Part shown: in pieces, positions 1 to 64,000 of the stretch
Position numbering within the stretch: position 1 is the stretch's first letter
Layout: every line of letters starts with the position of its first letter
Source of the DNA: Planctomycetota bacterium
GTDB taxonomy: Bacteria; Planctomycetota; B15-G4
Direction: 5' to 3'
Length of the DNA stretch: 64,000 nt
NCBI GenBank assembly: GCA_052387675.1
Contig: JBQTIY010000001.1
Coordinates: forward strand, 160,227-224,226
The notes under the pieces: model-generated
Seen by the model: only the letters and a program-made list of their open reading frames with translations
Told to the model about the DNA's origin: nothing
The model's database searches: none
Program-made: the position numbers and the translations under genes

Positions 1-507
1 CGGCAACCCCTGAGTAGCAGCGTCAATGGCCCCTATTACCGGAGCGAAATAGGTCGAGCGGGCCAAAGGGAGCAGGTAGACATCCTGAGCGAAAGCATAG
101 TCTTGCGCCTCGGCCGTGAACTCGGACGAACTGAAGATCGCAGTTTGATAGTGAAATCGGCGTACCGATGGCTGCCCCGGCGACCGCGCCACCCAGTACT
201 CAGACACATCCTTCAAGACACCGACAGCTCCGCGTACTACTGGCAATCCAATCCTTCGATGATCCGCATAGCACTTGGCCTCAACCAGTAGGCGCTGAGG
301 ATTACTGAACGGCTGGCCTATCCGAAGGTCCGCGATAGCGTCGATCTGATGTTTCGTACCCCTACCAGCCACCGTGATGCCAGCCGGGCCGATTGCCAGG
401 GTCGGGTCGGTACCAGGGTCGGTCATCGTGCGGTAGCCCGCAGCACGAAGAAGCGTCAGCACCGCCTCCTCTAGCAGAAGCCCTCGCACTTGGTGAATGG
501 ATGCCAT
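1..507 (-). CDS. Partial CDS (N-terminal 169 aa in window; gene continues beyond position 1): Mrr-cat-like PD-(D/E)xK restriction endonuclease domain protein
   Basis: Not in the ORF track because it runs off the window edge. Hand translation of the minus strand from ATG at 507 gives MASIHQVRGLLLEEAVLTLLRAAGYRTMTDPG...GTKHQIDAIADLRIGQPFSNPQRLLVEAKCYADHRRIGLPVVRGAVGVL...AIFSSSEFTAEAQDYAFAQDVYLLP. The pattern (LLxxLGY ... D-x-IDxxA ... E-A-K ... fTs.FT.eA..yA) matches the Mrr_cat restriction-endonuclease fold. An in-frame stop lies upstream at 565-567. Confidence 0.55.
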   Translation of the reverse strand, partial: MASIHQVRGLLLEEAVLTLLRAAGYRTMTDPGTDPTLAIGPAGITVAGRGTKHQIDAIADLRIGQPFSNPQRLLVEAKCYADHRRIGLPVVRGAVGVLKDVSEYWVARSPGQPSVRRFHYQTAIFSSSEFTAEAQDYAFAQDVYLLPLARSTYFAPVIGAIDAATQGLP

Positions 508-560
508 AGCTAACAGTCGATAGCTTGGAGTGCGGTCTGAGCCATAGAGCGCGCCATGCG

Positions 561-785
561 CTACTTAAACCAACCATGTCGAGTAGCTTCGGACACCAGC
601 TTCCTCAGCGTTCTCGCATCCTCAATCAGTGCCTGCCCGCGAGACGGCTTCAAGTGGCCCGATTTGCTATCTCGCCAAATGAACCGGTAACCAACTGATG
701 GACTGCCCCGGTCCCAGTGCCACCTGCATTCCTGAAAGCAGAGGCCGCGCTTGTTCCCAACTTCATTAAGTACTTTGACCCTCAT
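561..785 (-). CDS. Small hypothetical protein (74 aa) between the two Mrr-like nuclease genes
   Basis: ORF-track ORF; no recognisable motif. It fills the gap between the two nuclease genes on the same strand, and the neighbouring gene start/stop are 8 nt apart. Confidence 0.2.
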   Translation of the reverse strand: MRVKVLNEVGNKRGLCFQECRWHWDRGSPSVGYRFIWRDSKSGHLKPSRGQALIEDARTLRKLVSEATRHGWFK

Positions 786-792
786 TGTCAGT

Positions 793-1707
793 TCACTCCT
801 CCACGAAATAGTCCGAATCGATGCGCTTGATCTCGTAGGTCTCGACGGGCGAGACGCCCACGCCGTGGTCGATCATCAGGCTTGCCAACTCGGCCCCATC
901 GATAAGCGCAATCTTGCAGTCGATCTGCTTCGTGTACTCGACGGCATCTCGAGAGAAGTCGGATGTGGTGATGAAGACACCTTTTCTTGCCCGCTGGCCC
1001 TGGAGCGCGCCGACGAACTTCTGAAGTTCCGGGCGTCCCACCGTGGCCTCCCATCGCTTGGCCTGGATGTAGACGACATCGAGACCGAGACGATCCTCCT
1101 TGATGATCCCGTCGATGCCGCCGTCGCCGCTGCCGCCGACTGCCTTTCCAGCGTCCCTCAGCGTTCCGCCATAGCCCATCTTGACAAGCAAGGCTACGAC
1201 AAGGCGTTCAAAAAACGCGGGAGAGCAGCCCTTCACTCGATCCAGCACCTCGGCCTCGAGGTTAGCGCGGAGCCCTTCGTAGGCTCCCTCGAGTGTCTCC
1301 TCTGGCGTTGCTGATTCGGACTCAGCTGCGGGCTCTTGCTCTGTAGCCTCCTCCCGCTGGCGGCGAATCGCCCGAAACGCCCGATACTCCTCGAACCGCT
1401 CGAGGTACGGCATGTCGATCCTGACTGGCGCGGACCTCAGGACATCCTTGCCGCGTTCGGTGATTAGAAACACTCCCCGGCGCGGCGAAGCAAGCAGACA
1501 TGACTTGCCGAGGAAAGTGCGAGCCCACCCCGTGCGGTTGTGAAGGACTGTCTGCCGACCACTGGGCAGAAGCGAGACCTTCTCCGCCTCCGTGAGCCGA
1601 AACTCCACCGCCATGGCGTCGACTGCCTCGCGGAGGGTGTGAGCCTTGTCATCGGCCGCAAACCGAAGCAGCGGGAGCATGAGCGTCTGGAAATCCGGAA
1701 CCGGCAT
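793..1707 (-). CDS. mrr: Mrr restriction system protein (type IV modification-dependent restriction endonuclease; N-terminal winged helix + Mrr_cat nuclease)
   Basis: 304 aa. N-terminal MPVPDFQTLMLPLLRFAADDK..LREAVDAMAVEFRLTEAEKVSLLPSG is a Mrr_N-like winged helix. C-terminal ...FFERLVVALLVKMGYGGTLRDAGKAVGGSGDGGIDGIIKEDRLGLDVVYIQAKRWEATVGRPELQKFVGALQGQRARKGVFITTSDFSRDAVEYTK is a canonical Mrr_cat (D..IDG...QAKRW). Confidence 0.85.
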   Translation of the reverse strand: MPVPDFQTLMLPLLRFAADDKAHTLREAVDAMAVEFRLTEAEKVSLLPSGRQTVLHNRTGWARTFLGKSCLLASPRRGVFLITERGKDVLRSAPVRIDMPYLERFEEYRAFRAIRRQREEATEQEPAAESESATPEETLEGAYEGLRANLEAEVLDRVKGCSPAFFERLVVALLVKMGYGGTLRDAGKAVGGSGDGGIDGIIKEDRLGLDVVYIQAKRWEATVGRPELQKFVGALQGQRARKGVFITTSDFSRDAVEYTKQIDCKIALIDGAELASLMIDHGVGVSPVETYEIKRIDSDYFVEE

Positions 1708-2114
1708 GGAGGCCCTTTCCCTAAGCGCGAGGGCGGCACCCTATCGCGAGCGCGATGTGTCGCACAAGGCCCGGCGCTCCGAGAGCTGATCACTAAAGGG
1801 CAACTCGCCGAGCCCGTGCCCACCCGCCTCGGCACTTGCTCATGGTCGGAGAAATCATGTTTGAGCTGCTCTGCTAGGCCGAGGGAAGTCGGGGATTGCG
1901 CCACATCATCTACACCTCAGCCTTCGGCGCCTCGCAGTTCGCCCATTCCGCGTTGCGGGCTGCCGTCGTGGGCGCGCGAGTAGTGTTCAATCTCACCAGC
2001 ACTTAAGCGTGGTGTCAGGGTGGTGATCTCAGCCTGGGCGACCGGTTCTGAGTTTTCGGGAGGCACAACGGCCACAGACACCAATTGCTGCTGCGACTGT
2101 CTTGCCGCTGCCAC

Positions 2115-2489
2115 TCACGGCGTACTCAGCCCGTAGATCGTAAACGCGAACGCCGTCGCGTACGCAACCCCCAGAGCGCCAACTGACATGGCGACGAGTT
2201 CTCCTGCGTTCATCTTTTGCCCAGCTTGGTCACCGAACTGTCGCGCCACGCCGAGGACAGCCAAAAGAACCAAGGTGAAGAAGACCAGATACGCGCCCAC
2301 AACCACAAATATCCCAACCGCACTAGCTGTGAGCCCTTTCATCTCCGCCTCCGCCAGGATCGCTTTCAACGTGCCACCGAGAGTCATGACCTCCGTAAGT
2401 TTCAAAACACTGATTCCAAGCAGAATGCTCAAGACAAGCAAGTAGCGGTCGCCCAATTGATCATTCTTGTTCGACAATTCGGGGGCCAT
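2115..2489 (-). CDS. Small integral membrane protein (124 aa, 3-4 predicted TM helices), last gene of the ECF-like module
   Basis: Hydrophobic segments LLVLSILLGISVLKL, VGIFVVVGAYLVFFTLVLLAVLGV, VGALGVAYATAFAFTIYGL. It directly abuts the upstream S-component gene (2489/2490). Confidence 0.5.
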   Translation of the reverse strand: MAPELSNKNDQLGDRYLLVLSILLGISVLKLTEVMTLGGTLKAILAEAEMKGLTASAVGIFVVVGAYLVFFTLVLLAVLGVARQFGDQAGQKMNAGELVAMSVGALGVAYATAFAFTIYGLSTP

Positions 2490-2963
2490 CTACTTCGCCT
2501 CCGGTTGCGGAAACGCCAGCTGCACTCCCCTATGGACCGCTATGCCACCCACTGCCCCCACAACCGCCTGTACCGCGTTGAATGGGAGCTCGCTCACAGC
2601 CGCCGCCAACCCCATGCCGGGAAGAAATATCTCTGCCACAAAGTAAACGAATACCATGGCACCGACCGCCAAACCGACCCATCCCCCGTGCTTGCGACCA
2701 AGGCTGCCCGCAATGAACCCCTCCAGCCCCTTCGCTAGCAGAGTCACCGGAGCGAATATGAAGAAGCCACCAATCATGTCTGCAGCCGCACTCCCCGCCC
2801 CACCAGCTATCGCCCCATACTTTTTGCCGAGGAACAGACCACTGAATACTACGGCCATGTCACCGAGATTCAGGTAGCCCTGGGTTCCGGGTATCGGAAT
2901 CCGGATAACCATGGTCAGGGATGCCACTACTCCCGCGAGCAACAGGACAACGAACCACTTCAT
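2490..2963 (-). CDS. ECF transporter substrate-specific (S) component-like membrane protein
   Basis: 157 aa, about 5-6 TM. N-terminal MKWFVVLLLAGVVASLTMVIRIPIPGTQGYLNLGDMAVVFSGLFLG and the glycine-rich middle (GAIAGGAGSAAADMIGGFFIFAP) resemble ThiW/QueT/BioY-type S components. Its start overlaps the stop of the fused ATPase/T gene by 4 nt (2960-2963). Confidence 0.6.
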   Translation of the reverse strand: MKWFVVLLLAGVVASLTMVIRIPIPGTQGYLNLGDMAVVFSGLFLGKKYGAIAGGAGSAAADMIGGFFIFAPVTLLAKGLEGFIAGSLGRKHGGWVGLAVGAMVFVYFVAEIFLPGMGLAAAVSELPFNAVQAVVGAVGGIAVHRGVQLAFPQPEAK

Positions 2964-5266
2964 CTCTTACCTCCACTTTTGAGTGCCTTGTGTTGAGCAA
3001 CCGTCCTCGACATGCACATCCACGCCCAGGGTGACCAGACGAGGATATTGCGTATCACTGTCCCGAGGAGCTCAGGGGAACGGCGCAGCGCTACCCACGC
3101 TTGCCTTGGGACCATGTTTGCAGCCTCGAAGTCCGGCCAACGACTGAGCATGACCATGGCTTGCATCGTATCCAAAAGCGCTTCAGTTGCGAATTCCGCC
3201 GAACGAAACAGCAGAGTGGCCCGGCGCCGCCATCTCCCGAACAAGCCAAACTCCAAGGGAGACGTGAACTGGAAGAACAGCATGCCGCTTGTGATTGTCG
3301 CCAACATGCGTAGGGGATGCGAAAGCGTGTAGAGCCACCGTGTAGTTGGTGTATCCAGGGACATATAGGGCGAGAGACTTGCGCCCGACATAACCACGAG
3401 CGCAGCTACCGCAACATACAAGAGAGATCCAAAGGCCCATGTCACCATCAAGATGTGAAACGCTGATCTCTGCACCGCGGCACGCAAGAGCACTACGAGA
3501 AGACTTGCAACCAGGGACAGTGCTACACAGTAGACGACCAACGTAGATTCTGAGACAACGAACACGAAGCCGTAGCAGAATGTCGCGACAGCCACAAGGC
3601 CCAACAACTTTAAGGACAGCGGCGCACTCCATAGCATCGCGCGTGCATGGGTCTCTCTCCCGGCATCCGCGCCATGGACCGCTTCCTGATGAGGAGGGCG
3701 CTCCCTACTGATATGACCGTCTGTCAGGTAGAGCAGTTCCGCTCGGAGGGAATCTGCGAGATGCGTGTTATGCGATATCACAAGGATGCTGCGGCTGTCA
3801 CCGCACATGCTACTTAAGGCTGTGAGAAACTCGGCTTCGTCCTTTGCAGACAAGCCCCAAGTCGGCTCGTCCAGCACCACCACTCGGGTCGTCGGCGTGA
3901 TCGCTGAGGCCAACACAAGGAGTTTCTGCTGAAGCGGCGTTAGTTGAATTACACATCGATGGTCCGGAACGGGCACCCAGCTATCAATCAACTGAAGCGC
4001 TATCGCGTTGTCGTGGCAGTGCTTCTTGTAGCTACCCACGGTGGGCAGAGGTAGCTGCTGTAGCGGATACTGGCTGAGGTACGTCACGCAAGACAAGATG
4101 TCTTCACGAGTAAGGGACGCCAATGGTGTTCCGTTGAGCTCAACCATCCCTTTGTCCGGTGTCAACAGCTTGTACACCAGCTTTGCAATACTAGACTTGC
4201 CAGAACCGTTGGGGCCAACGATGCAATAGTTCTGACCGGGATAGATCGCGAAGGACAGCGCGTCCAACAGCGGCTCTTGACGCACGATTTCTGACCCCGG
4301 ATAGTCGAGGAAGCTGACTTCCTTAAACTGGACAAGCGGGGCCGTACCTTCCGGACGTACTCCAGTGGGTATTTGGTCGCGTCGCCGCTCGGGTCTGTGA
4401 ATGTCTTCTAGAAAATCCATCGGCCGAAGCTGCCCTCCATCGAGAAGGTAAGCGGCATCGGTGACGCAAAGCAGATCTTCCCTCTCATGTTCGAGCAAGA
4501 CGATGTGGGATGAACGCGCACTCCGGATAGCCGCGAGCAGGGCCGCCCTGCCCGAAGAATCAAGCCAGGGAACTACTCCATGAAGCGCATAGCAACTGCG
4601 ATCACTGGAAAAGGCTAGGGAAAGGGCTACACGCATCCGCTCGCCACCGGAAAGCGCCGAAAGGGTGCGCCGCAGGAAGGATGGTGCAAGACCAAATCGC
4701 GTGAGTGCGCTTATGGCTTGGTTGCGGTCCATCCCAAGAGAGCGGAAGTTGTCCTCAACCCGGGAGAAGAGCAGCATCTGATCGGGATCGGGGCCGACGT
4801 ACGCGGTCGATTCTGGGAGAGCGCCCTCAACTACATCCAGTTTGCCTGTGTAGGGCCTAAGAAGTTCTTCGATGGGTGCCCATGGAACAACACCGTCGGT
4901 AATGGGAATTAGGCCTGCGATAATCCCGCCAAGCACGTGGTACGCAGGGGTGTTTTCTCCAACGATCAGACACGGGCGTCCGGGTGTGAGTTCGATCCTG
5001 GCTCCATCGAGCAGCACGACGCCACACTTCAGTACGTAGTTGAGCTTCATGCTAAGCACAGGCGCCATCTCATTCTCTGCCACCAGGATGTTCCACGGAG
5101 AGTTCGTCGCCATTCGGTGTCGCTGAGTCGCAGAGTGTGCCTCGCGGTAGATCCCCCCCCAACACTTCCGTTCAGCGGCGGCGCGTAGCACCGCCCTCTG
5201 CGTGCTGTTGTTGGGCGGCGCCGCTAAGTGCCCCGCTTCGGGAGTTGGTCGATTCGGCCCGGTCAC
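2960..5266 (-). CDS. Fused ECF-type ABC transporter energy module: NBD1 (degenerate) - NBD2 (consensus) - EcfT/CbiQ-like transmembrane domain in one 768-aa polypeptide
   Basis: NBD1 has an atypical P-loop (LIVGENTPAYHVLGG), an intact signature (LSGGERMRV) and a degenerate Walker B (IVLLEHE). NBD2 has Walker A GPNGSGKSS, Q-loop LSQYP, Walker B VVVLDEPT and H-loop ISHN, with a degenerate signature (LTPLQQK). The C-terminal ~230 aa carry 5-6 TM helices (LLGLVAVATFCYGFVFVV, LVVYCVALSLVASLLVVLL, LMVTWAFGSLLYVAVAALVVM) and an amphipathic EcfT-like coupling segment. The true start may be the internal MATNSPW (about 5113); the longest ORF start overlaps the DUF4145 gene stop by 4 nt. Confidence 0.7.
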   Translation of the reverse strand: MTGPNRPTPEAGHLAAPPNNSTQRAVLRAAAERKCWGGIYREAHSATQRHRMATNSPWNILVAENEMAPVLSMKLNYVLKCGVVLLDGARIELTPGRPCLIVGENTPAYHVLGGIIAGLIPITDGVVPWAPIEELLRPYTGKLDVVEGALPESTAYVGPDPDQMLLFSRVEDNFRSLGMDRNQAISALTRFGLAPSFLRRTLSALSGGERMRVALSLAFSSDRSCYALHGVVPWLDSSGRAALLAAIRSARSSHIVLLEHEREDLLCVTDAAYLLDGGQLRPMDFLEDIHRPERRRDQIPTGVRPEGTAPLVQFKEVSFLDYPGSEIVRQEPLLDALSFAIYPGQNYCIVGPNGSGKSSIAKLVYKLLTPDKGMVELNGTPLASLTREDILSCVTYLSQYPLQQLPLPTVGSYKKHCHDNAIALQLIDSWVPVPDHRCVIQLTPLQQKLLVLASAITPTTRVVVLDEPTWGLSAKDEAEFLTALSSMCGDSRSILVISHNTHLADSLRAELLYLTDGHISRERPPHQEAVHGADAGRETHARAMLWSAPLSLKLLGLVAVATFCYGFVFVVSESTLVVYCVALSLVASLLVVLLRAAVQRSAFHILMVTWAFGSLLYVAVAALVVMSGASLSPYMSLDTPTTRWLYTLSHPLRMLATITSGMLFFQFTSPLEFGLFGRWRRRATLLFRSAEFATEALLDTMQAMVMLSRWPDFEAANMVPRQAWVALRRSPELLGTVIRNILVWSPWAWMCMSRTVAQHKALKSGGKR

Positions 5267-5934
5267 CCCTTATCGCGTTTCGCGATCGCATCCAACTTCT
5301 CCTTGGGGAGTGAACCGTAGATGCTACTGATCTCATTGGGCTCCGTGATCAGCTTCGTTGCGATGAAGTTAACGAGCTTGAAGAGAGCACCCGCGACCGC
5401 GCGATTGTCGCGAAGATCAATCGCTCCCGGGTGAACGGCCTCGTTTCCTATCACGCGCACGCTGTCGAGGGCCTCCTGAACCCTTGGCGGAAGTCCGGCC
5501 GCAACCAGCGCAGCGACATCATCATTGATGTTCTTGCCAGGTTGGCCCAAATGAGAACAAAGCCTCTGAATCGCTAGTCGAAGAAGCGCAGCCGAGCCAC
5601 GGGGTGAAGCAGCTAGAATCGCCCGCGCTTCCTCATAATCGTTCTTGATGTCGGCGGGCAGATCCGGGTTCGGTGGCTCAGCACCCCCAGTGTTTGGAAA
5701 GAGCATTCTGTCGCCCAGCCAAATGGTGGGATAGCGGCACCGCTCGCACTGGCTCACGAGGAATCTCGAATCTCGAAACTCCTCGCCAAAGCCGTTAGCC
5801 ATCGACGATCCATGCATGTAGAACCAGACCTGGCGGCAGTAGACGTGGCAGTTCACACAGTTGAACGCGTCAAGTCCATTCGCGGGCAGCACGTACTCAG
5901 GCTTCATACGTTCCTTTCGGCCGCCCAACCGCAA
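5263..5934 (-). CDS. Zinc-ribbon + DUF4145-like domain protein (first gene of the island operon)
   Basis: 223 aa (a likely start MKPEYV at about 5907 gives 214 aa). The N-terminus has CVNCHVYC...CERCRYP, a CxxC...CxxC zinc ribbon. The C-terminal ...LRLAIQRLCSHLGQPGKNINDDVAALVAAGLPPRVQEALDSVRVIGNEAVHPGAIDLRDNRAVAGALFKLVNFIATKLI is an all-alpha DUF4145-like region, a domain typically found fused to restriction-modification/Abi proteins. Lower GC. Confidence 0.5.
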   Translation of the reverse strand: MRLGGRKERMKPEYVLPANGLDAFNCVNCHVYCRQVWFYMHGSSMANGFGEEFRDSRFLVSQCERCRYPTIWLGDRMLFPNTGGAEPPNPDLPADIKNDYEEARAILAASPRGSAALLRLAIQRLCSHLGQPGKNINDDVAALVAAGLPPRVQEALDSVRVIGNEAVHPGAIDLRDNRAVAGALFKLVNFIATKLITEPNEISSIYGSLPKEKLDAIAKRDKG

Positions 5935-6391
5935 TCAGACCGGTCTGTGTTTTCAGTTTGCCCGCTGCCAAGCACGGCGGGCAGGGTCGCATCAAATCGG
6001 TTACAGTCGTCCCGGTGGATTCGAGTTGCGGAACTCACGTTGCCGTCATCGCACCACGAAGGAAAGGCCTGCTCTTGCCTCGCAAACGCAGCGATTGGCT
6101 GTCGCGAGAGCCTAGCGATTGCGCTCTCGTCGGCCGAGCAGTTAACCACGCCCATTTTGAGCCCCTTTCGCGGAGAGCAAGAGAGCGTTGTAACCGCCAT
6201 CGCGCGGGCCGTGAAGGCTTCGGCGGTCAACTGCCTGCGAGCCACATCACCTGCGCGTCGCGCCCGGCACGACACCCCTCGCAATCCTGCGCAGAACGGG
6301 CGATTCCTGGCGCTCGCCGCGCGGCCGGTCGCGGCGCTCGCGGAGCCTTCCGAGCACCCCGCCCTTGCCCGCCTCGTTCGCATGGAGGCGA

Positions 6392-6465
6392 TGGTTCCCG
6401 AACTAGGATTCGAACCTAGATACCCAGATCCAGAATCTGGTGTCCTGCCGTTGGACGATTCGGGA
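6392..6465 (-). tRNA. tRNA-Gln (anticodon CUG)
   Basis: The reverse complement of 6392-6465 folds as a 74-nt cloverleaf: acceptor UCCCGAA/UUCGGGA with a U1:A72 pair (typical of bacterial tRNA-Gln), D stem GUCC/GGAC, anticodon stem CCAGA/UCUGG, loop UUCUGGA (anticodon CUG), T arm CUAGG-UUCGAAU-CCUAG, discriminator A, encoded CCA. Confidence 0.8.
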
Positions 6466-6589: not shown

Positions 6590-7507
6590 ATGCCCACCGC
6601 TCACACCGTCCCCGCGATGACCCCCACCACCGAACCGCTCAGCTTCCTCGGCCTGCCGGACGCCGGCCCTGCCGCGCAGGTGGCTGTCGTGCTGGCGCCC
6701 TACGACCTCACGAGCACCTACGGCAAGGGCGCCGACCGCGGCCCGGCCGCCCTGCTCGCCGCGAGCGGCGCCGTGGAAACCTGGGACGACGAGACCGGCC
6801 GCGACCTCGAAGAGCTGGGCTACACCACCTGGCGCCCCGCCGACCCGGCCGCCTTCGGCCGCCTGCGCCCCGAAATCATGGTGCGCGAACTCGAGCGCGC
6901 CCACGCCGCGCACATCGAGGCCGGCCGCTTCACGCTGGGCGTCGGCGGCGAGCACTCCATCAGCTACGGCCAGTTCGCGGCCTTGCGCGCGCGCTACCCC
7001 GACCTCGCCGTGCTGCAAGTGGATGCGCACTGCGACCTGCGCGACACCTACAAGGACAGCCCCCACAGCCACGCCTGCATCGCGCGCCGCTTCCTGGAGG
7101 ACGGCGCGCCGCTCGTCCAAGTGGGCATGCGCAGTTGCAGCCGCGAGGAGGCGGCGCTCATCGCCGCGCGCCGCCTCACCGTGCACTGGGCGCGCGACGT
7201 GGCCGGCCGCGTGGCCTATCACCGCGACGTGCTCGCGGTGCTCGCCAACCGCCCCGTCTTCGTCACCGTGGACCTGGACGGCTTCGATCCTTCGCTTGTG
7301 CCCGCCACGGGCACGCCCGAGCCCGGCGGCCTGACCTGGTTCGACGTCACGCGCCTGCTCTTTGCCGTCGCGCGCCACAACACCGTGGTCGGCGCCGACA
7401 TCACCGAGCTGGCGCCCACGCCCGACGGCGTCTTCTCGCGGCCCAGTGAGTTCCTCGCCGCGCGCCTGGCCGCCAAGATGGTGGCCTACTTCGTCAAGGC
7501 GCCTTAA
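6590..7507 (+). CDS. Arginase/agmatinase/formiminoglutamase-family ureohydrolase
   Basis: GVGGEHSISYG, VLQVDAHCDLRDTY, VTVDLDGFDPSLVPATGTPEPGGL are the Mn-binding motifs of the arginase fold. The ORF-track N-terminus (GTG at 6440) overlaps the tRNA and is probably spurious; the ATG at 6590 (MPTAHT) is in frame. Confidence 0.8.
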   Translation: MPTAHTVPAMTPTTEPLSFLGLPDAGPAAQVAVVLAPYDLTSTYGKGADRGPAALLAASGAVETWDDETGRDLEELGYTTWRPADPAAFGRLRPEIMVRELERAHAAHIEAGRFTLGVGGEHSISYGQFAALRARYPDLAVLQVDAHCDLRDTYKDSPHSHACIARRFLEDGAPLVQVGMRSCSREEAALIAARRLTVHWARDVAGRVAYHRDVLAVLANRPVFVTVDLDGFDPSLVPATGTPEPGGLTWFDVTRLLFAVARHNTVVGADITELAPTPDGVFSRPSEFLAARLAAKMVAYFVKAP

Positions 7508-56889: not shown

Positions 56890-58367
56890 GCACGCGGCTC
56901 ATCGTGACGCTCAGCGCGGCGACGCCGGCCGAGGCCGCGCCCCTGCTGCAGCAGCCGCCGGAGGGCGCCGACTATCTTGAGTTGCGTCTCGACTTGCTGA
57001 CGCGGCCCGATGGCGAGAGCGTGCGAGCGCTGCTGGCCTTGCCGCGCAGCATTCCCGTCATCGCGACATGTCGCCCCGGCCCGGCCCTGCCCGACGACGC
57101 GGCCCGGCTCGCGCTGCTGCAGACCGCCGGCGAGGCGGGCGCCGATGTGCTCGATGTCGACGACACGCTGCTGGACCGCCTGCCCGCCAGCGTGCCCGGC
57201 GAGCGCTTGGCGAGTTGCCATGTCGCGCGCTTCGCGCCACGCCTGAAGGCTCTGGCCGGGCGCGTGGCGGGACACGGCACGCGCTGGTCCAAGCTCGCTG
57301 TCCCGGCCGACACACCGCGGCAGCTCGCAGAGTTGCTCGCGATCCAAGAAGCTCACGCGGGAACCCTGGCCGTAGTCCCCACCGGGCGACTCTCGGAAGC
57401 CGGCCGGGTCATGAGCGCGGGACGCGGAGCGCCCTTGAGCTACGCCGCACTCGACCCGCTGCGTCCCGGACATCCCGATCAGCCGGCGCTGGCTCGCCTG
57501 CACGGCGTGCATGGCATCGGCCATGTCGGCACTCACACACGCTTCTTCGCCGTGCTGGGCAGTCCGGTAGCGCATAGCCTCTCTCCGGCCTGGCACAACG
57601 CGGTGTTCCGCGGCGCCGGCATGGACGCGCGCCTCGTGCCGCTGGATGTCGAGCGCGTGCGCGATGTGCTCGAAGTGGCCGACGCCCTGCGGCTGGACGG
57701 CTTCGCCGTGACGCATCCGCTCAAGCGCCAGGCCCTCGAGGCGGCCGAAAGCAGCCTGCCTGGTGCGAAGACCACCGGCTCGGCCAACACACTGCTGCGC
57801 ACCGCCACGGGCTGGCAGGCCCGCAACACCGATTGGAAGGCGGCCAGCGAACTCCTCCCGAAACTCCTCAAAGCCTGGCGCAAGGCGCAGCCAGGCCAGA
57901 CCCCGCGCGTCCTCTTGCTCGGTTCCGGCGGCGCGGCGCGCGCCATCGCCGTGGCCCTTTTCGACGAGGATGTCGAGTTGGGCATCTGGTCGCGGCGACT
58001 TTCGAATGCACGCCTGCTGGCCGATGCACTGAAGGACAGCATGCCGGTGGTGGCGATTCCCGAGCCGGCGCACTTTCCGGCTGACATTGTGGTGAATGCC
58101 ACGCCGCTGGGCTCGCCCGGTGCTCAGACCACCGAACTGCAGGTTCAGGCCGCCTGCTTCAGGCCGGGGGCCCGTGCGGTCGATCTGGCCTATGGCGCCG
58201 CCGAATCGTGTTTTCGCGCGGCCGCCCACGAGGCCCAGGCTCAACTGACCAGCGGGGAGGATTTTTTCTGTTTACAGGCTCGCCGACAGTCGGAAGTCTT
58301 CACGGGAGCCCCCGTGCCCGAGGCCACGCTGAACGAGGCGCTGCGCCGCTGCGGGATAAAGACCTGA
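56886..58367 (+). CDS. aroDE: Bifunctional 3-dehydroquinate dehydratase (type I) / shikimate dehydrogenase
   Basis: N-terminal type-I DHQase (YLELRLDLL...PVIATCR); C-terminal AroE (FAVLGSPVAHSLSPAWHNAVF, NTDW, LLLGSGGAARA). Confidence 0.9.
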   Translation: MSTRLIVTLSAATPAEAAPLLQQPPEGADYLELRLDLLTRPDGESVRALLALPRSIPVIATCRPGPALPDDAARLALLQTAGEAGADVLDVDDTLLDRLPASVPGERLASCHVARFAPRLKALAGRVAGHGTRWSKLAVPADTPRQLAELLAIQEAHAGTLAVVPTGRLSEAGRVMSAGRGAPLSYAALDPLRPGHPDQPALARLHGVHGIGHVGTHTRFFAVLGSPVAHSLSPAWHNAVFRGAGMDARLVPLDVERVRDVLEVADALRLDGFAVTHPLKRQALEAAESSLPGAKTTGSANTLLRTATGWQARNTDWKAASELLPKLLKAWRKAQPGQTPRVLLLGSGGAARAIAVALFDEDVELGIWSRRLSNARLLADALKDSMPVVAIPEPAHFPADIVVNATPLGSPGAQTTELQVQAACFRPGARAVDLAYGAAESCFRAAAHEAQAQLTSGEDFFCLQARRQSEVFTGAPVPEATLNEALRRCGIKT

Positions 58368-58416
58368 AACCCGAGGTCAGGCATCTGGGCGCAATGCGCT
58401 AGGATGGGGCTTCACC

Positions 58417-60069
58417 GTGCGCCGACTCAAAATCATCTTCGTCAGCCTGAACAACACCATCTTCGCGGATGGTTCGCGCATCCTGTCGGCGGCGCTCCGC
58501 AAGCAGGGGCATGACGTCCACTTCGTCTGCCTGACCCAGGACGGGGACAACTACTACCCCGAACCGGTCCTGCGGCAGTTCTCGGACCTCGTCGCGGAGA
58601 AGGCCCCGCACCTCGTCCTGTACAGCTTCCTCTCGGACAACTTCCTGCGGGCCAGCCGCGTGACCGAGCGGATCTACCGGGACCACCCGGCCGTGACCCA
58701 GGTCTGGGGCGGCGTGCACTGCACGATCGCACCGGAAGAGGCCATCAAGCACGTCAAGGTCCTCTGCCAGGGCGAAGGCGACGAAGCGCTGCCGGAGTTC
58801 GTGGAGAAGTTCGCGAACGGCGAGGACGTGACGAGCGTTGAGAACTTCTGGTTCCGCGACGAGCGCGGCGAGGTCAAGGCCAACGCCATGCGGCCGCTCA
58901 TGCTTGATCTCGACCGGATGCCCTGGCCGGACTATGAGATCGACACGCACTTCGTGCTCGATGAGGGCCAGCTCAAGCCGATGACCGTGGCGCTGCTGGA
59001 GAAGTACCACAACAACGCGCCGCTGGGCTTCCCCACCTATCCGATCTTGAGCAGTCGCGGCTGCGCCTTCCGCTGCAGCTTCTGCTACAACGCGACCTAC
59101 AAGCAGATCTTCGCCGGACAGAAGTCCGTGCGCTTTCGCAGCCTGCCGGACGTCGTGAACGAGCTGCGTTACATGAAGGACCGCTTCCCCTTCTTCCGCT
59201 CCTTCTTCTTCAGCGATGACGACTTCTTCCTGCGCAGCAAGAAGGCGCTGGAGGAGTTCTCCACGCTTGCCCGCGAGAAGATCCCGGACCTGCTCTTCGA
59301 CGCCTGGTGGGGCAGCACGGCCACGCCGGCTTCGCTGAGCAAGGACAAGCTCGATCTGATGTACGACATCGGCTTCCGCGTGGTCGCCGTGGGCGTGCAG
59401 ACCGGCAGCGAAGACTTCAATAAGCGCATCTACGACCGCGACTTCCCGAATCAGCTCTTCATCGAGAAGATGTGGATGATCGACCGGCATTACCGCCGGA
59501 AGATGGTGATTTCGCTCGACTTCATCGTGGACTGCCCCTACGAGACCGAGCAGGACACGCTCGAGACCGTGCGGCTCATCGAAAAGCTCCCCAACTGGGT
59601 GAGCCTGGCCGTGTTCACCTTCGTCTTCTATCCGGGCTCACCGCTCTACAAGCGGGCCATCGAGGCGGGCGAGATCACGGCCGACCCCGAGCTGTACAAC
59701 GCCAAGAGCTTTCAGCCCTTCGAACACAAGGGCCACAGCTATGTCAGCCACGTGATGATCGCCATGGGCTGCGCGAACTACGTCATGCCGCGCTGGTTCA
59801 AGCGCGTGCTCATCAGCCGGCCCATGGTTTGGGCGGGCCGCCACACGCCGCAGTTCCTGCTCGATCTGTGGGACTGGAAGCCCATCTACAACAAGCTCTG
59901 GGCCTACAACCAGGGCACCGCACTGGGCCTCGGCAACCGCAAGAAGCACTGGTGGCAGTTCTGGAACTTCTTCCGCGGCGCCGAAGAAAAGCTCCCCGCG
60001 CAGGAAGCGCAGGTCATGCAGGAGCGCGGCCAGATCGATCAGTGGACTAAGGGCAGCCTGACTGGCTGA
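58417..60069 (+). CDS. B12-binding domain-containing radical SAM protein (class B radical SAM)
   Basis: The N-terminal cobalamin-binding Rossmann-like module (KIIFVSLNN...GHDVHFVCL) plus SSRGCAFRCSFCYN (CxxxCxxC) radical-SAM cluster motif. GC and amino-acid composition differ from the neighbours. Confidence 0.85.
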   Translation: MRRLKIIFVSLNNTIFADGSRILSAALRKQGHDVHFVCLTQDGDNYYPEPVLRQFSDLVAEKAPHLVLYSFLSDNFLRASRVTERIYRDHPAVTQVWGGVHCTIAPEEAIKHVKVLCQGEGDEALPEFVEKFANGEDVTSVENFWFRDERGEVKANAMRPLMLDLDRMPWPDYEIDTHFVLDEGQLKPMTVALLEKYHNNAPLGFPTYPILSSRGCAFRCSFCYNATYKQIFAGQKSVRFRSLPDVVNELRYMKDRFPFFRSFFFSDDDFFLRSKKALEEFSTLAREKIPDLLFDAWWGSTATPASLSKDKLDLMYDIGFRVVAVGVQTGSEDFNKRIYDRDFPNQLFIEKMWMIDRHYRRKMVISLDFIVDCPYETEQDTLETVRLIEKLPNWVSLAVFTFVFYPGSPLYKRAIEAGEITADPELYNAKSFQPFEHKGHSYVSHVMIAMGCANYVMPRWFKRVLISRPMVWAGRHTPQFLLDLWDWKPIYNKLWAYNQGTALGLGNRKKHWWQFWNFFRGAEEKLPAQEAQVMQERGQIDQWTKGSLTG

Positions 60070-60117
60070 TCCCTGACCAGCCCTGACCGCTGAGCGCGGT
60101 CTGCAGGCTGGCGCGCC

Positions 60118-61872
60118 TCAGGGCGTAACGAAGGCGAGGCCGTTGCTGGCTGAGTAGCCCAGGGGGCCCGCCGGATCAGCGACCCAGAACTGGGTGTAGA
60201 TCGGAAAGCCGGCCGGCACTCCCACCGGCACGGCGCCGGTGACCAGGACCTTGCCCACAAAGCCGGTGTTGAAGCCAGGCAGGACCAGCAAGGGATCTGG
60301 CACGAGCACGCCGCCGAAGAGCGGCACACCGAGGTGCGTGATGCCCACCACGAAGAAGGCCGGGGCCTGCGTGACCGCATTGTCGAGCAGGAAGCCAATG
60401 CCTCCGCCCGGTGAGGTGCCGCCGCTGCCGGTGCTCGTGGGGAAGCCCAGCCCGCCGGCGAGTGAATTCCCCAGCGCCGTGAAGACGCCGGTGCTGATCT
60501 GCAGCAGATGCGCCGCACCACGATCGGTGCCGCCGTCATCCGCGAAGCGCGACCCGGTGAGGACCGAGCCGTAGCCGAAGAGCTGGTTCGTGCCGAGGGC
60601 CGCCACGGCGTAGCCGAACTGGTCGCCGGCGGCAATCGTGGGAGCCAGCCCACCTGTCGTCGCGCTGATCTTCTGCGAGTTGAGGATGGTCTGCGTGCTG
60701 GTGAGCGTGAGGATCCAGATCGATCCGGAATCAGTGCCGCCGTCGTCGCAGAGCGGAGCGCCCACGACGAGGTCCAACTCACCATCCAGATTCACGTCCG
60801 GCAGGAAGGCTACTGCGTTGCCGAAGCGATCACCGTCAGCCAGCGCTGGGGTGATGCCGCCCTGCGTGGCACTCAGCTTCTGCTCTTCCGCCACGGTTCC
60901 GCTGGCGTTTAGCAGCAACAGCCAAACGGCTCCGCGATCCGGGCCGCCGTCATCGTCGTTGCGCGCACCCACCGCCAAGTCGGAGAGGCCATCGTCGTTG
61001 AGGTCGGCCGACGCAAGGGCCGAACCAAACCAGTCGCCGTTCGCCAGGGAGCTCGTGAAGCCGCCAGCTCCCTGACTGATCTTGGTGGCGCTCGCCACGC
61101 CGCCGAACGGCTGGAGGAAGAGCACCCAGACGGCTCCGCGGTTGCTGCCGGCATCGTCATCAAGAATCGCGCCGACCGCGACGTCCTCGCGGCCATCGCT
61201 GTTCAGGTCGCCGAGTCCGGTCACGGACAGCCCGAAGAAGTCGCCATCATCGAGCGGGCCAGCGAAACCACCCTGTGTGTGGCTGATCTTGCTGTTGAAG
61301 AACACGGTGCCGTCGTTCTTCAGGAAGAGGATCCAGACCGCGCCGCGATCCGTGCCGCCGTCGTCATCTTTGTTGGCGCCGACGATAATGTCCTGCACGC
61401 CGTCGCTGTTCAGGTCCCCGACAAGCGCCACGGAGACGCCGAACTGGTCGTCGTCATCCAGCACGCCCGTGAAACCGCCCGCTAGGTCGCTGATCTTCTG
61501 GTGCGACTTCACCGTGCCATTGGGCTTGAGGAAGAGCACCCACACGGCACCACGGTTCGGGCCGCCGTCGTTGTCCCACATCGCACCGACGACGATGTCG
61601 TCCACGCCATCCAGGTCGAGGTCACCGATGTCGGCCACGGCCCCGCCGAAGAGATCGGAATCAGCCAACGAGCCCGCGAAGGCGCCGGCGGTGGAACTGA
61701 GGCGCCGGCTGTCGAGGCTCTCGCCGGGCTGCACCTGGGCCGCAGCCGCGAAACTCAAGCCCCCGAGCACCAGTCCACAGAGCAAGCCCACTCGAGGCGC
61801 GAGCTGGCGAGCGCGATCGGCGCTCAAAGAGGCAGCGGGAGCGTCGTTGCGAACACTACGGTTTGTAATCAT
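60118..61872 (-). CDS. Secreted FG-GAP/integrin-alpha-like beta-propeller repeat protein
   Basis: Start MITNRSV at 61872 (signal peptide LLCGLVLGGLSFAAAAQ). Five or more repeats of the type DDIVVGAMWDNDGGPNRGAVWVLFL / VGANKDDDGGTDRGAVWILFL / VGARNDDDGGPDRGAVWLLLL. Confidence 0.8.
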   Translation of the reverse strand: MITNRSVRNDAPAASLSADRARQLAPRVGLLCGLVLGGLSFAAAAQVQPGESLDSRRLSSTAGAFAGSLADSDLFGGAVADIGDLDLDGVDDIVVGAMWDNDGGPNRGAVWVLFLKPNGTVKSHQKISDLAGGFTGVLDDDDQFGVSVALVGDLNSDGVQDIIVGANKDDDGGTDRGAVWILFLKNDGTVFFNSKISHTQGGFAGPLDDGDFFGLSVTGLGDLNSDGREDVAVGAILDDDAGSNRGAVWVLFLQPFGGVASATKISQGAGGFTSSLANGDWFGSALASADLNDDGLSDLAVGARNDDDGGPDRGAVWLLLLNASGTVAEEQKLSATQGGITPALADGDRFGNAVAFLPDVNLDGELDLVVGAPLCDDGGTDSGSIWILTLTSTQTILNSQKISATTGGLAPTIAAGDQFGYAVAALGTNQLFGYGSVLTGSRFADDGGTDRGAAHLLQISTGVFTALGNSLAGGLGFPTSTGSGGTSPGGGIGFLLDNAVTQAPAFFVVGITHLGVPLFGGVLVPDPLLVLPGFNTGFVGKVLVTGAVPVGVPAGFPIYTQFWVADPAGPLGYSASNGLAFVTP

Positions 61873-62192
61873 CGGGAACTCCAACTCGAATGCGGCGATG
61901 GCGGGAACCTGATCCGTGACCGAGCGGGCAGCCGGCAGGCCTCGCTCAGTACCCCCTTCGCTGTCCAGCCGCACCGCTGACTCAGTGCGTCGACCGTGGA
62001 AAGGGGCGGGTGTGACCCAGGTCTGGTTCATATTCTGGCAGAAAAGTGCGGGTGAGGGGATGTCGAGGTCGAGAGGCAGCCCGAAGCTTTGCGCTCCTCC
62101 GGCAGCGTCCGGAGCGACTATCGGCCGAATGGGCCTCTCGGATGGACCTCGAGCGGCCACGGTTCGCCTGCGGAGGGCGTGCGGGCGCTCCT

Positions 62193-64000
62193 CTAGCCGC
62201 CCCTGAGCAGGGCCTCAACCACCCCGGGATCAGCCAGGGTGCTGGTGTCTCCCAGGTCGCTCATTTCCCCGGCGGCGATCTTGCGGAGAATTCGCCGCAT
62301 GATCTTTCCACTGCGGGTCTTAGGGAGGGCCGAGGTGAACTGAATCCGGTCGGGCGTGGCGATCGGCCCAATGACTCGCCGGACGGTCGCCACGAGTTCC
62401 TGACGCAGCACGTCGTCGCCCTCCCGGCCGCGCGCCAGGGTCACGAAGGCATAGATGCCCTGGCCCTTGATGGGGTGGGGCATCCCCACCACGGCCGTTT
62501 CGACCACGGCCTCATGCTCGTCAAGCGCCGACTCAACTTCGGCGGTGCCAAGCCGATGGCCGGAGACATTGATCACGTCGTCGACGCGCCCGGTGATGCG
62601 GTAGTAGCCATCGGCATCGCGCTGGGCACCGTCGCCCGTGAAGTACTTGCCGGGGAACTGTGAGAAGTACGTCTGCCGGAAGCGCTCGTGATCGCCGTAG
62701 ACCGTGCGCATCATTCCCGGCCAGGGGAAGTCCAGGCAGAGTTTGCCTTCAACGTTCGGGCCTTCGAGGACGCGGCCGGCATCGTCCACGATGACCGGCC
62801 GCACGCCCGGCAGCGGCAACGTGGCGAGGCCCGGCTTGAGCGGCGTGGCGCCCGGCAGAGGCGAGATGAGGATGCCGCCGGTCTCGGTTTGCCACCACGT
62901 GTCCACCACCGGGCAGCGGCCCTCGCCCACCACGCCGTGGTACCAGTGCCAAGCGTCCACATTGATCGGCTCACCCACTGTGCCGAGCAGGCGCAGCGAC
63001 GCGCGCGAGCGCTTCGTCACCGGTGCATCGCCGGCCACCATGAGTGCACGAATCGCCGTCGGCGCGGTGTACAGGATCGAGACCTTGTGCTTGTCCACCA
63101 CGTCCCAGAAACGCCCCGCGTCGGGATAGCTGGGGATGCCTTCGTACATGAGCGTGGTCGCGCCGTTGCAAAGCGGCCCGTACACGATGTAGCTGTGCCC
63201 CGTGACCCAGCCGACGTCCGCCGTGCACCAGTAAATGTCGTTGGGGCGCCAGTCGAAGACGAGTTCGTGCGTGTAACTGGCGTAGACGAGGTAGCCGCCG
63301 GTCGTGTGGAGCACGCCCTTGGGTTTGCCGGTTGAGCCCGAGGTGTACAGGATGAAGAGCGGATCCTCGGCCCCCATGCTCTCCGGCGGACAGTCGGCGC
63401 TGAGCCCGGGCGCCTGCATCAGTTCGTGCCACCAGAGGTCGCGGCCGGCGCGCATGGCAACCGAGGCCCCGGTGCGGCGCAGCACGATGGCCTCGCGGAC
63501 GCAGTCAGCCCCCTGCAAGGCCTCGTCGGCGATCGCCTTCAGCGGAATGTGCTTGCCGCCGCGCAGGCCCTCGTCGGCCGTGATGAGCGTGCGGCAGCGA
63601 CTGTCCAGGATGCGATCGCGCAGGGACTGCGCCGAGAAGCCTCCGAAGACCACGCTGTGTACGGCGCCAAGGCGAGCGCAGGCCAGCACCGCCACGGCCA
63701 GCTCGGGCACCATGGGCATGTAGATGCAGACCCGGTCACCACGCACCACGCCGCGGCCCTTGAGCACGTTCGCGAAGCGGCTCACGAGGGCCAGCAGCTC
63801 GGCATAGCTAATGTGCCGATCCTCGGCCGGGTCATCACCCTCCCAGAGGATCGCCGTGCGAGCCCCGTGGCCGGCCAGCACATGCCGATCGAGGCAGTTG
63901 TACGAGGCGTTGAGCTGGCCATCAGCAAACCAGCGCACCTGCGCCGCCTGGAAATCCCACTCGAGCACGCTCTGGAAGGGCTTGTCCCAAGTGAGACGCT
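62193..64000 (-). CDS. acs: Acetyl-coenzyme A synthetase (acetate--CoA ligase), partial: the N-terminal about 50-70 aa lie beyond the window end
   Basis: ...[18 protein letters not shown]..., the AMP-binding motif [34 protein letters not shown], and C-terminal ...[13 protein letters not shown]. The ORF runs off the window edge. Confidence 0.93.

Follow-up and report, generated by a model that had tools for sequence, protein, structure and literature searches.

What occupies the 3′ side of the tRNA-Gln(CUG) gene in this planctomycete chromosome, and how did it come to be there? The question arises from a stretch of 64,000 nucleotides (64 kb; 'the window' below) from contig JBQTIY010000001.1 of the Planctomycetota bacterium assembly GCA_052387675.1, in which the DNA to the left of the tRNA gene differs sharply from everything to its right. 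We interpret positions 1 to ~6200 as a horizontally acquired, mosaic defence island made up of independently working cassettes and situated in a variable locus 3′ of the conserved tRNA-Gln(CUG), a reading to which we assign a probability of about 75%. The island is at least 6.2 kb long and is open at the left end of the window. Its genes code for a homologue of the anti-phage RNase RAZR (formerly PD-T7-4), a Mrr-type restriction endonuclease, part of a second nuclease of the Mrr_cat family and an importer of the energy-coupling factor (ECF) type.

The foreign character of the island is apparent from its composition. In 2-kb windows, GC content is 0.57–0.61 across positions 1–6000 versus 0.69–0.74 across 6–58 kb. 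Host 1-kb windows have a mean GC of 0.710 with a standard deviation (sd) of 0.019 and a minimum of 0.665, and the six 1-kb windows of the island (0.57–0.64) lie 4–7 sd under the host. GC at third codon positions (GC3) is 0.61–0.74 in island genes versus 0.89–0.93 in host genes that flank the island. In tetranucleotide usage the island lies at a distance of 0.51–0.57 from the host; this distance is 0.14–0.20 for typical 3-kb host blocks and up to 0.30 for three atypical ones, so that the island value is about 3-fold higher than that of host blocks. The compositional anomaly of positions 1 to ~6200 is thus real and far beyond chance. An initial annotation, made from the sequence without database searches, had proposed a lower-GC island here, and re-analysis bears this out, as GC, GC3 and tetranucleotides all deviate from the host. 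It had also placed the fall in GC at the tRNA gene itself. The drop stands, but its position has to be corrected: the switch occurs at ~6200, approximately 190 bp past the tRNA 3′ end (60% GC for 5908–6200, 74% for 6201–6391). Inside the island GC is uneven, being 58% for the RAZR and ECF genes versus 62–64% around Mrr. The features of the island and its right border are as follows (labels beginning with L denote loci and contigs used for comparison; ORF, open reading frame; aa, amino acids).

1..507, minus strand: second Mrr_cat-family nuclease, N-terminal 169 codons, running off the left end (Pfam Mrr_cat, E 2e-6)
561..785, minus strand: 74-aa ORF, unsupported as a gene (no family match)
793..1707, minus strand: Mrr, predicted type IV (modification-dependent) restriction endonuclease (Pfam, PADLOC)
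1708..2114, no strand: 407-bp spacer from the ECF operon to Mrr, 63% GC (no Rfam family)
2115..2489, minus strand: 124-aa membrane protein, third gene of the ECF operon (homologues in L082 and L085)
2490..2963, minus strand: ECF S (substrate-binding) component (Pfam ECF-ribofla_trS, PF07155, 6e-24)
2960..5050, minus strand: 696-aa fusion of a degenerate nucleotide-binding domain (NBD), a canonical NBD of the ATP-binding cassette (ABC) type and a T-like membrane domain (Pfam, homologue alignment)
5263..5907, minus strand: RAZR/PD-T7-4 homologue, a predicted RNase with a Cys4 zinc ribbon and a DUF4145 (HEPN) domain (PADLOC, Pfam, PDB)
5908..6200, no strand: non-coding DNA of low GC (60%) at the island end, upstream of RAZR (GC)
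6201..6391, no strand: 191-bp spacer of host-like GC (74%) from the low-GC DNA to the tRNA 3′ end (GC)
6392..6465, minus strand: tRNA-Gln(CUG), conserved host gene (ARAGORN, Rfam; 87–99% identical in 11 relatives)
6590..7507, plus strand: arginase-family gene, host anchor of the right flank (Pfam Arginase, 1e-59; GC3 0.93)

Most of this inventory agrees with the initial annotation. The order of the genes and their common minus strand are as it described, as are the partial Mrr_cat gene running off the window, the complete Mrr, the spacer of about 400 bp (measured at 407 bp) and the succession of a small membrane protein, an S component and a fused ATPase protein. The 74-aa ORF is the exception: listed earlier as cargo, it found no support in family, homologue or protein-collection searches and is treated together with the nucleases below.

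If the block is an insertion, it should be considered against the organization of the same locus in related genomes. Eleven metagenome-assembled genomes (MAGs) of Planctomycetota (L002–L012) were found via the arginase-family gene, at 65–83% amino acid identity. The tRNA-Gln(CUG) gene, located at 6392–6465 in the window (ARAGORN; Rfam tRNA, E 7e-12), stands directly beside the arginase-family gene in all 11, and the downstream synteny of ABC-transporter genes is kept in L003–L011. Island proteins are present in none of them, so that the absence of the block from the tRNA-Gln/arginase junction, which comparison with relatives had been expected to reveal, was observed in 11 of 11 genomes. Similarity to the relatives ends exactly at the tRNA-Gln 3′ end. 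Beyond that point the genomes diverge: a UPF0047 gene lies 18–480 bp from the tRNA in L004, L009, L010 and L011, is displaced by 1.7 kb in L003 (a pilin-like gene) and by 6.6 kb in L006 (metabolic genes of host-like GC), and L002, L008 and L012 carry unrelated content. In the closest relative, L012 (900–6600), a lower-GC patch 3–9 kb from the tRNA codes for AbiEi/AbiEii and for an SbcC/D-like pair (an SbcC-like ATPase and a metallophosphoesterase); therefore, the same neighbourhood holds different defence genes. The tRNA-Gln 3′ side is a variable locus in this clade and the right flank is conserved. Since right-flank synteny is kept, the left flank varies and the island is absent, the block represents an insertion at a synteny breakpoint.

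It might be argued that the region is native and vertically inherited, with a composition that merely happens to be unusual; the same window does contain a milder GC dip (62–68%, at 58–64 kb) with ordinary genes. Such an origin is barely credible, however, for DNA with GC 4–7 sd below the host, GC3 lower by 0.2–0.3 and an about 3-fold higher tetranucleotide distance, whose genes are found in 0 of 11 relatives and have their nearest homologues in unrelated GC backgrounds and on viral contigs.

As a separate observation on this locus, the tRNA-Gln gene of L002 (9778–9851; anchor gene 80% identical) lies on the strand opposite to that in all the other relatives, which suggests a local inversion.

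The exact right border deserves attention, as it bears on whether the junction is genuine. The 191 bp between the low-GC DNA and the tRNA (6201–6391) resemble neither the relatives nor any other part of the window, and a search of 5908–6391 for a remnant of a host gene found none. Among the spacers, neither Rfam families nor convincing regulatory signals were found. One independent 1.6-kb contig, Logan contig L001 (SRR34758883), is 100% identical to positions 4603–6185 and stops there, 15 bp short of the GC switch. Its end near 6200 could reflect low coverage or a branch of the assembly graph at the island border. Another explanation to consider is an assembly artefact, in which 58% GC DNA of another organism was joined to a 71% GC genome near the tRNA. 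The source is indeed a MAG, tRNA genes are known sites of misjoins between genomes, and L001, the only independent contig found, contains island DNA only and ends before the switch. On the other hand, the switch is located ~190 bp from the tRNA, in non-conserved sequence and outside the shared tRNA k-mers. The other end of L001 (4603) is equally arbitrary, and the ends are therefore probably due to low coverage. In addition, the contig is 314 kb long and bears the locus tag ACT4PU_00645 here, which suggests that it continues far to the left. Overall, we regard a chimeric contig as highly unlikely.

We then considered the cargo. The gene closest to the tRNA starts at the ATG at 5907, replacing the TTG at 5934, and can be assigned with good support to the RAZR/PD-T7-4 family. 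The PADLOC model PD-T7-4 matches it with 3.9e-82 (positions 1–208 of 211), Pfam DUF4145 with 2.5e-15, and chain OA of the PDB entry 9y9c, a 'DUF4145 domain-containing protein' present in 24 copies, over its full length (E 9.4e-56, residues 10–212 against 9–207). Both CxxC pairs of the Cys4 zinc ribbon are kept, FNCVNC and SQCERC aligning to FNCPHC and STCSHC of 9y9c_OA, and so is the HEPN site (RVIGNEAVH versus RIVGNQAVH), with identical R-x7-H spacing corresponding to the catalytic R146 and H154 of the E. coli protein. The family assignment is well supported because these motifs are conserved and the PADLOC and 9y9c matches are full-length. A 768-aa ORF with a GTG start that overlaps this gene was considered and rejected. 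PD-T7-4, renamed RAZR, is a single-gene abortive-infection system that works alone in E. coli; it joins a Cys4 zinc ribbon to a divergent HEPN RNase whose catalytic residues are R146 and H154. Ring-shaped proteins of the phage, for instance the T7 portal, become surrounded by 24 assembled copies of RAZR, which in this state cut single-stranded RNA (PMC13017515). The island protein resembles E. coli RAZR (9y9c) in keeping the zinc ribbon, the linker and the HEPN site, and in its length (214 aa versus a chain of 219 residues). In contrast to the E. coli protein, it belongs to a Planctomycetota host, is chromosomal and adjoins a tRNA gene. It would extend the RAZR system, whose structure was solved recently, to Planctomycetota.

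The complete nuclease gene codes for a canonical member of the Mrr family. It contains the Mrr_N (Pfam, 1.3e-25) and Mrr_cat (9.3e-37) domains, matches the PADLOC model mREase_IV end to end (2.5e-90), shows the motif GIDG ... IQAKRW and corresponds to NCBI MGQ0551708.1, named 'restriction endonuclease'. As in the E. coli Mrr family, a winged-helix Mrr_N domain is combined with a Mrr_cat nuclease domain, and nothing notable appears to differ. In a comparison of the island DNA with plasmid and phage records, matches were confined to the catalytic core of Mrr (68–71%), where the similarity to restriction endonuclease genes of plasmids is weak. Homologues of the Mrr protein also occur on three viral contigs, near the contig ends.

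The second nuclease is represented by its N-terminal part, in which the D...ExK motif is visible (HQIDAI ... LVEAKCY). Its full-length homologues comprise ~340 aa, including an uncharacterised C-terminal domain of ~170 aa. A metagenome scan found homologues of 28–77% identity in other organisms; family members (L086–L109) at 50–77% identity occur in metagenomes of 24–65% GC. A search of viral contigs with the partial nuclease returned none. The family has no match in, and is absent from, PADLOC. We examined its neighbourhood in three longer contigs, and all of them carry restriction-modification (R-M) or candidate defence genes: type I HsdR/S/M in L093, a type I S subunit together with PDC-S06 and PDC-S26 in L098, and a type IIG enzyme together with HNH in L102. 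We consider the ~340-aa family, which combines Mrr_cat with the C-terminal domain, a candidate defence nuclease that is as yet uncharacterised.

The 74-aa ORF between the two nucleases was rejected as a gene. It has no Pfam, NCBIfam or PADLOC match, tblastn found no counterpart beside homologous nuclease genes, and its exact sequence is absent from the protein collection, in which the five other island proteins looked up are present under the consecutive numbers MGQ0551708 to MGQ0551712; it is not among the island proteins of the NCBI record. On the other side of Mrr, the spacer 1708–2114 has no convincing promoter or terminator, and a 65-aa ORF inside it matches no family and has no conserved counterpart behind the 124-aa gene in L082 or L085.

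The remaining cargo is an importer operon of unusual composition. Alignment with homologues places the start of the fusion protein at MKLNY (position 5050), which replaces the GTG at 5266 and makes it identical to NCBI MGQ0551711.1. The second NBD of the fusion is canonical (GPNGSGKS; Pfam ABC_tran, 1e-22); the first is degenerate, having kept LSGGE and lost the Walker A motif. The NCBIfam models ECF_ATPase_1/2 match the fusion under their cutoff. A PADLOC match of the ATPase to 'mad3', as part of a MADS-like system, was rejected as generic ABC similarity. In split homologues the C-terminal domain has its counterpart in a separate gene located between A and S, with 30% identity in the case of L084; the Arg residues of FRS and IRN are invariant. 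The AlphaFold2 model of this domain has a pLDDT of 60, and the top Foldseek hits, EcfT 7nnu_D (E 0.35) and CbiQ 5x3x_q (E 1.7), are not significant. The label 'T' is thus partly supported. Among solved chains, 4hzu_S comes closest to the S component (E 1e-8), which is 62–80% identical to the products of the S genes of L082–L085. The 124-aa membrane protein has no family match; its 65% identical homologues follow directly after S in L082 and L085.

The family is rare: among 5.8 billion proteins, one search returned the source protein, three fused homologues (38–51% identity) and six ATPase-only homologues. In the three fused loci (L082, L083 and L085) the ATPase–T gene and S recur together, and the 124-aa gene is present in two of them. 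In the four split loci (L084, L133, L134 and L135) the order is A, a membrane protein gene of 215–233 aa, and S. Three of the four split loci lie beside genes of pyrimidine metabolism: L084 is next to pyrB, pyrI, pyrD, pyrC, pyrF and a phosphoribosyltransferase gene, followed by a pyrimidine-nucleoside phosphorylase gene; L133 is next to pyrD, pyrC and pyrF; and L135 adjoins a pyrimidine-nucleoside phosphorylase gene. Because split homologues adjoin pyrimidine genes in three independent loci, the substrate is probably a pyrimidine-related compound. Like the dedicated ECF transporters of Group I, for example YkoEDC and BioMNY, and like the L. brevis transporter 4HZU, the importer has a PF07155-type S component, two ABC domains and a putative membrane coupling domain, all of them specified by a single operon. 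It differs from them in several respects: one NBD, the first, is degenerate; A, A′ and T make up a single protein; the T-like domain matches neither the CbiQ Pfam family nor an EcfT profile; an additional conserved 124-aa membrane protein is present; the family is very rare; and the context of the split homologues points to pyrimidine metabolism. In L082, a gene for a 795-aa protein (2230–4617) lies directly upstream of the fused ECF module; the protein shows weak similarity to Mrr_cat (E 0.002) and to PIN-like domains (E 0.05) and has no PADLOC match. Genes for a radical SAM protein and a DUF6375 protein are found further upstream.

Do the ECF and RAZR genes belong together? The initial annotation had combined them into an 'ECF/DUF4145 module', and they are indeed adjacent and on the same strand. 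If they formed one unit, the transporter might feed or regulate the immune RNase, or might itself be an anti-phage system. In favour of such a link, fused-type ECF homologues occur in variable, nuclease-containing contexts, namely next to the 795-aa protein with its weak Mrr_cat similarity in L082 and near a DUF559 gene in L083. However, the overlap between the ATPase and DUF4145 genes disappears because the real start of the fusion is at 5050 rather than 5266, and the RAZR stop at 5263 is separated from it by a gap of 212 bp. RAZR is present in none of the seven other ECF loci (L082–L085, L133–L135). Conversely, ECF genes are absent from all 23 viral contigs that carry RAZR, none of which has any other gene of the island, and no ECF S component was found on viral contigs. 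Furthermore, RAZR protects E. coli as a single gene (PMC13017515). Finally, the split ECF homologues are embedded in pyrimidine metabolism, and the PADLOC matches of the ATPase are explained by generic ABC similarity. The module is therefore refuted as a functional unit, and a partnership of this kind is very improbable; the two are neighbours, not partners, and an ECF transporter with a DUF4145 protein should not be treated as a new combined system.

A different link, which we consider a long shot, would be that the rare fused ECF importer is no mere passenger: it would travel with nuclease or immunity genes (the window, L082 and L083), pyrimidine-type import aiding anti-phage defence or its tolerance, and the ~340-aa Mrr_cat family would be an uncharacterised defence nuclease. 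If true, the importer could supply a nucleobase when immunity or the phage drains the pools. The ECF operon is more plausibly seen as a metabolic importer carried as a passenger in the island.

There is also the question of how the block arrived. The tRNA context invites the explanation that it is one integrative element (an island or a prophage remnant), inserted by a tyrosine integrase into the tRNA-Gln 3′ end, with the integrase and attachment (att) site located beyond the left end of the window. The block does lie on the tRNA 3′ side, and homology to the relatives stops exactly at that end. RAZR homologues are also frequent prophage cargo, as 9 of 23 lie within 2.5 kb of the end of a viral contig (5.4 expected, P ~0.04); in two IMG/VR viral contigs, L116 (52–1049) and L117 (74–1067), RAZR is found 120–380 bp downstream of a tRNA gene (Glu and Ser) at the contig edge, an arrangement like that in the window. 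Mrr homologues are likewise found near viral-contig ends. Against this, the 6.4 kb available contain no integrase or recombinase among the island ORFs and no att repeat. The lack of both within the window, already remarked upon in the initial annotation, was borne out by family scans of the ORFs and by repeat searches. A search for the att repeat, as suggested there, gave no second copy of the tRNA-Gln 3′ segment (TGGTTCCCGAACTAGGATTCGAACC) in the window at up to 3 mismatches, and no meaningful repeats of other kinds were seen. In elements that integrate into tRNA genes the integrase usually lies beside the tRNA; the gene adjoining the tRNA here is RAZR, not an integrase. Moreover, if the crossover had taken place within the tRNA, element DNA would begin right at 6391, yet 191 bp of 74% GC separate the tRNA from the low-GC DNA. 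GC is heterogeneous in the block, each cassette occurs separately elsewhere, and no integrase was found among the left-flank ORFs scanned in L002, L003, L008 and L012. A single integrative element is thus possible, though doubtful. Since the RAZR and ECF genes have 58% GC versus 62–64% around Mrr, we infer that at least two insertions gave rise to the island, and we favour stepwise accretion in a permissive locus over a single integrative element.

The block is like other defence islands at variable tRNA loci, in which immunity genes that are unrelated and work on their own are clustered; such islands have a foreign composition, are missing from relatives and are bordered by a conserved tRNA and core flank. 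Unlike defence islands by tRNA genes, it has no integrase, att site or mobility gene in 6.4 kb, a transporter operon stands in its middle, and its left border is outside the window. No conserved linkage connects its cassettes. The cargo genes would be expected to act like their characterised homologues. By homology, RAZR would idle as an oligomer and then wrap ring-shaped phage proteins such as the portal; once wrapped, it would cleave RNA at its HEPN site, so that the infection is aborted. Mrr would cut modified phage DNA, and the second Mrr_cat nuclease, whose family lives inside R-M loci, may provide a third defence cassette. The passenger operon would constitute an ECF-type importer (a fusion of degenerate NBD, NBD and T, the S component and the 124-aa membrane protein) for a substrate that is probably pyrimidine-related.

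Several points weigh against the interpretation of the block as an acquired mosaic defence island. Its left boundary is outside the window, and a return to host GC is therefore unproven. The functions of the cargo are predicted from homology. The T-like domain has no CbiQ Pfam match and no PDB profile match, both the sequence and the profile tests for EcfT/CbiQ having failed. The relatives are distant (65–83% amino acid identity in the anchor gene), with no same-species empty site among the genomes found. Defence genes are located at the locus in only two of 12 genomes (the window and L012), and the other variable flanks consist of ordinary, host-like genes. Because of this low count, the notion of a 'defence hot spot' is weakly supported.

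With these points taken into account, the block is a real but ordinary defence island with cargo of known kinds: three predicted anti-phage genes that are independent of one another, and a vitamin-type importer unrelated to them. Alone it is of little importance, being one more defence island, albeit in a phylum for which few have been described. Two by-products are of note: a very rare family of ECF importers found near pyrimidine genes, and a Mrr_cat family, absent from PADLOC, in R-M loci.

Elsewhere in the window, a second, milder GC dip (0.62–0.68) is located at 58000–64000. No defence or mobility genes were seen among the genes scanned there, and its contents are ordinary: a B12-binding radical SAM enzyme, an FG-GAP repeat protein and an acyl-CoA synthetase.

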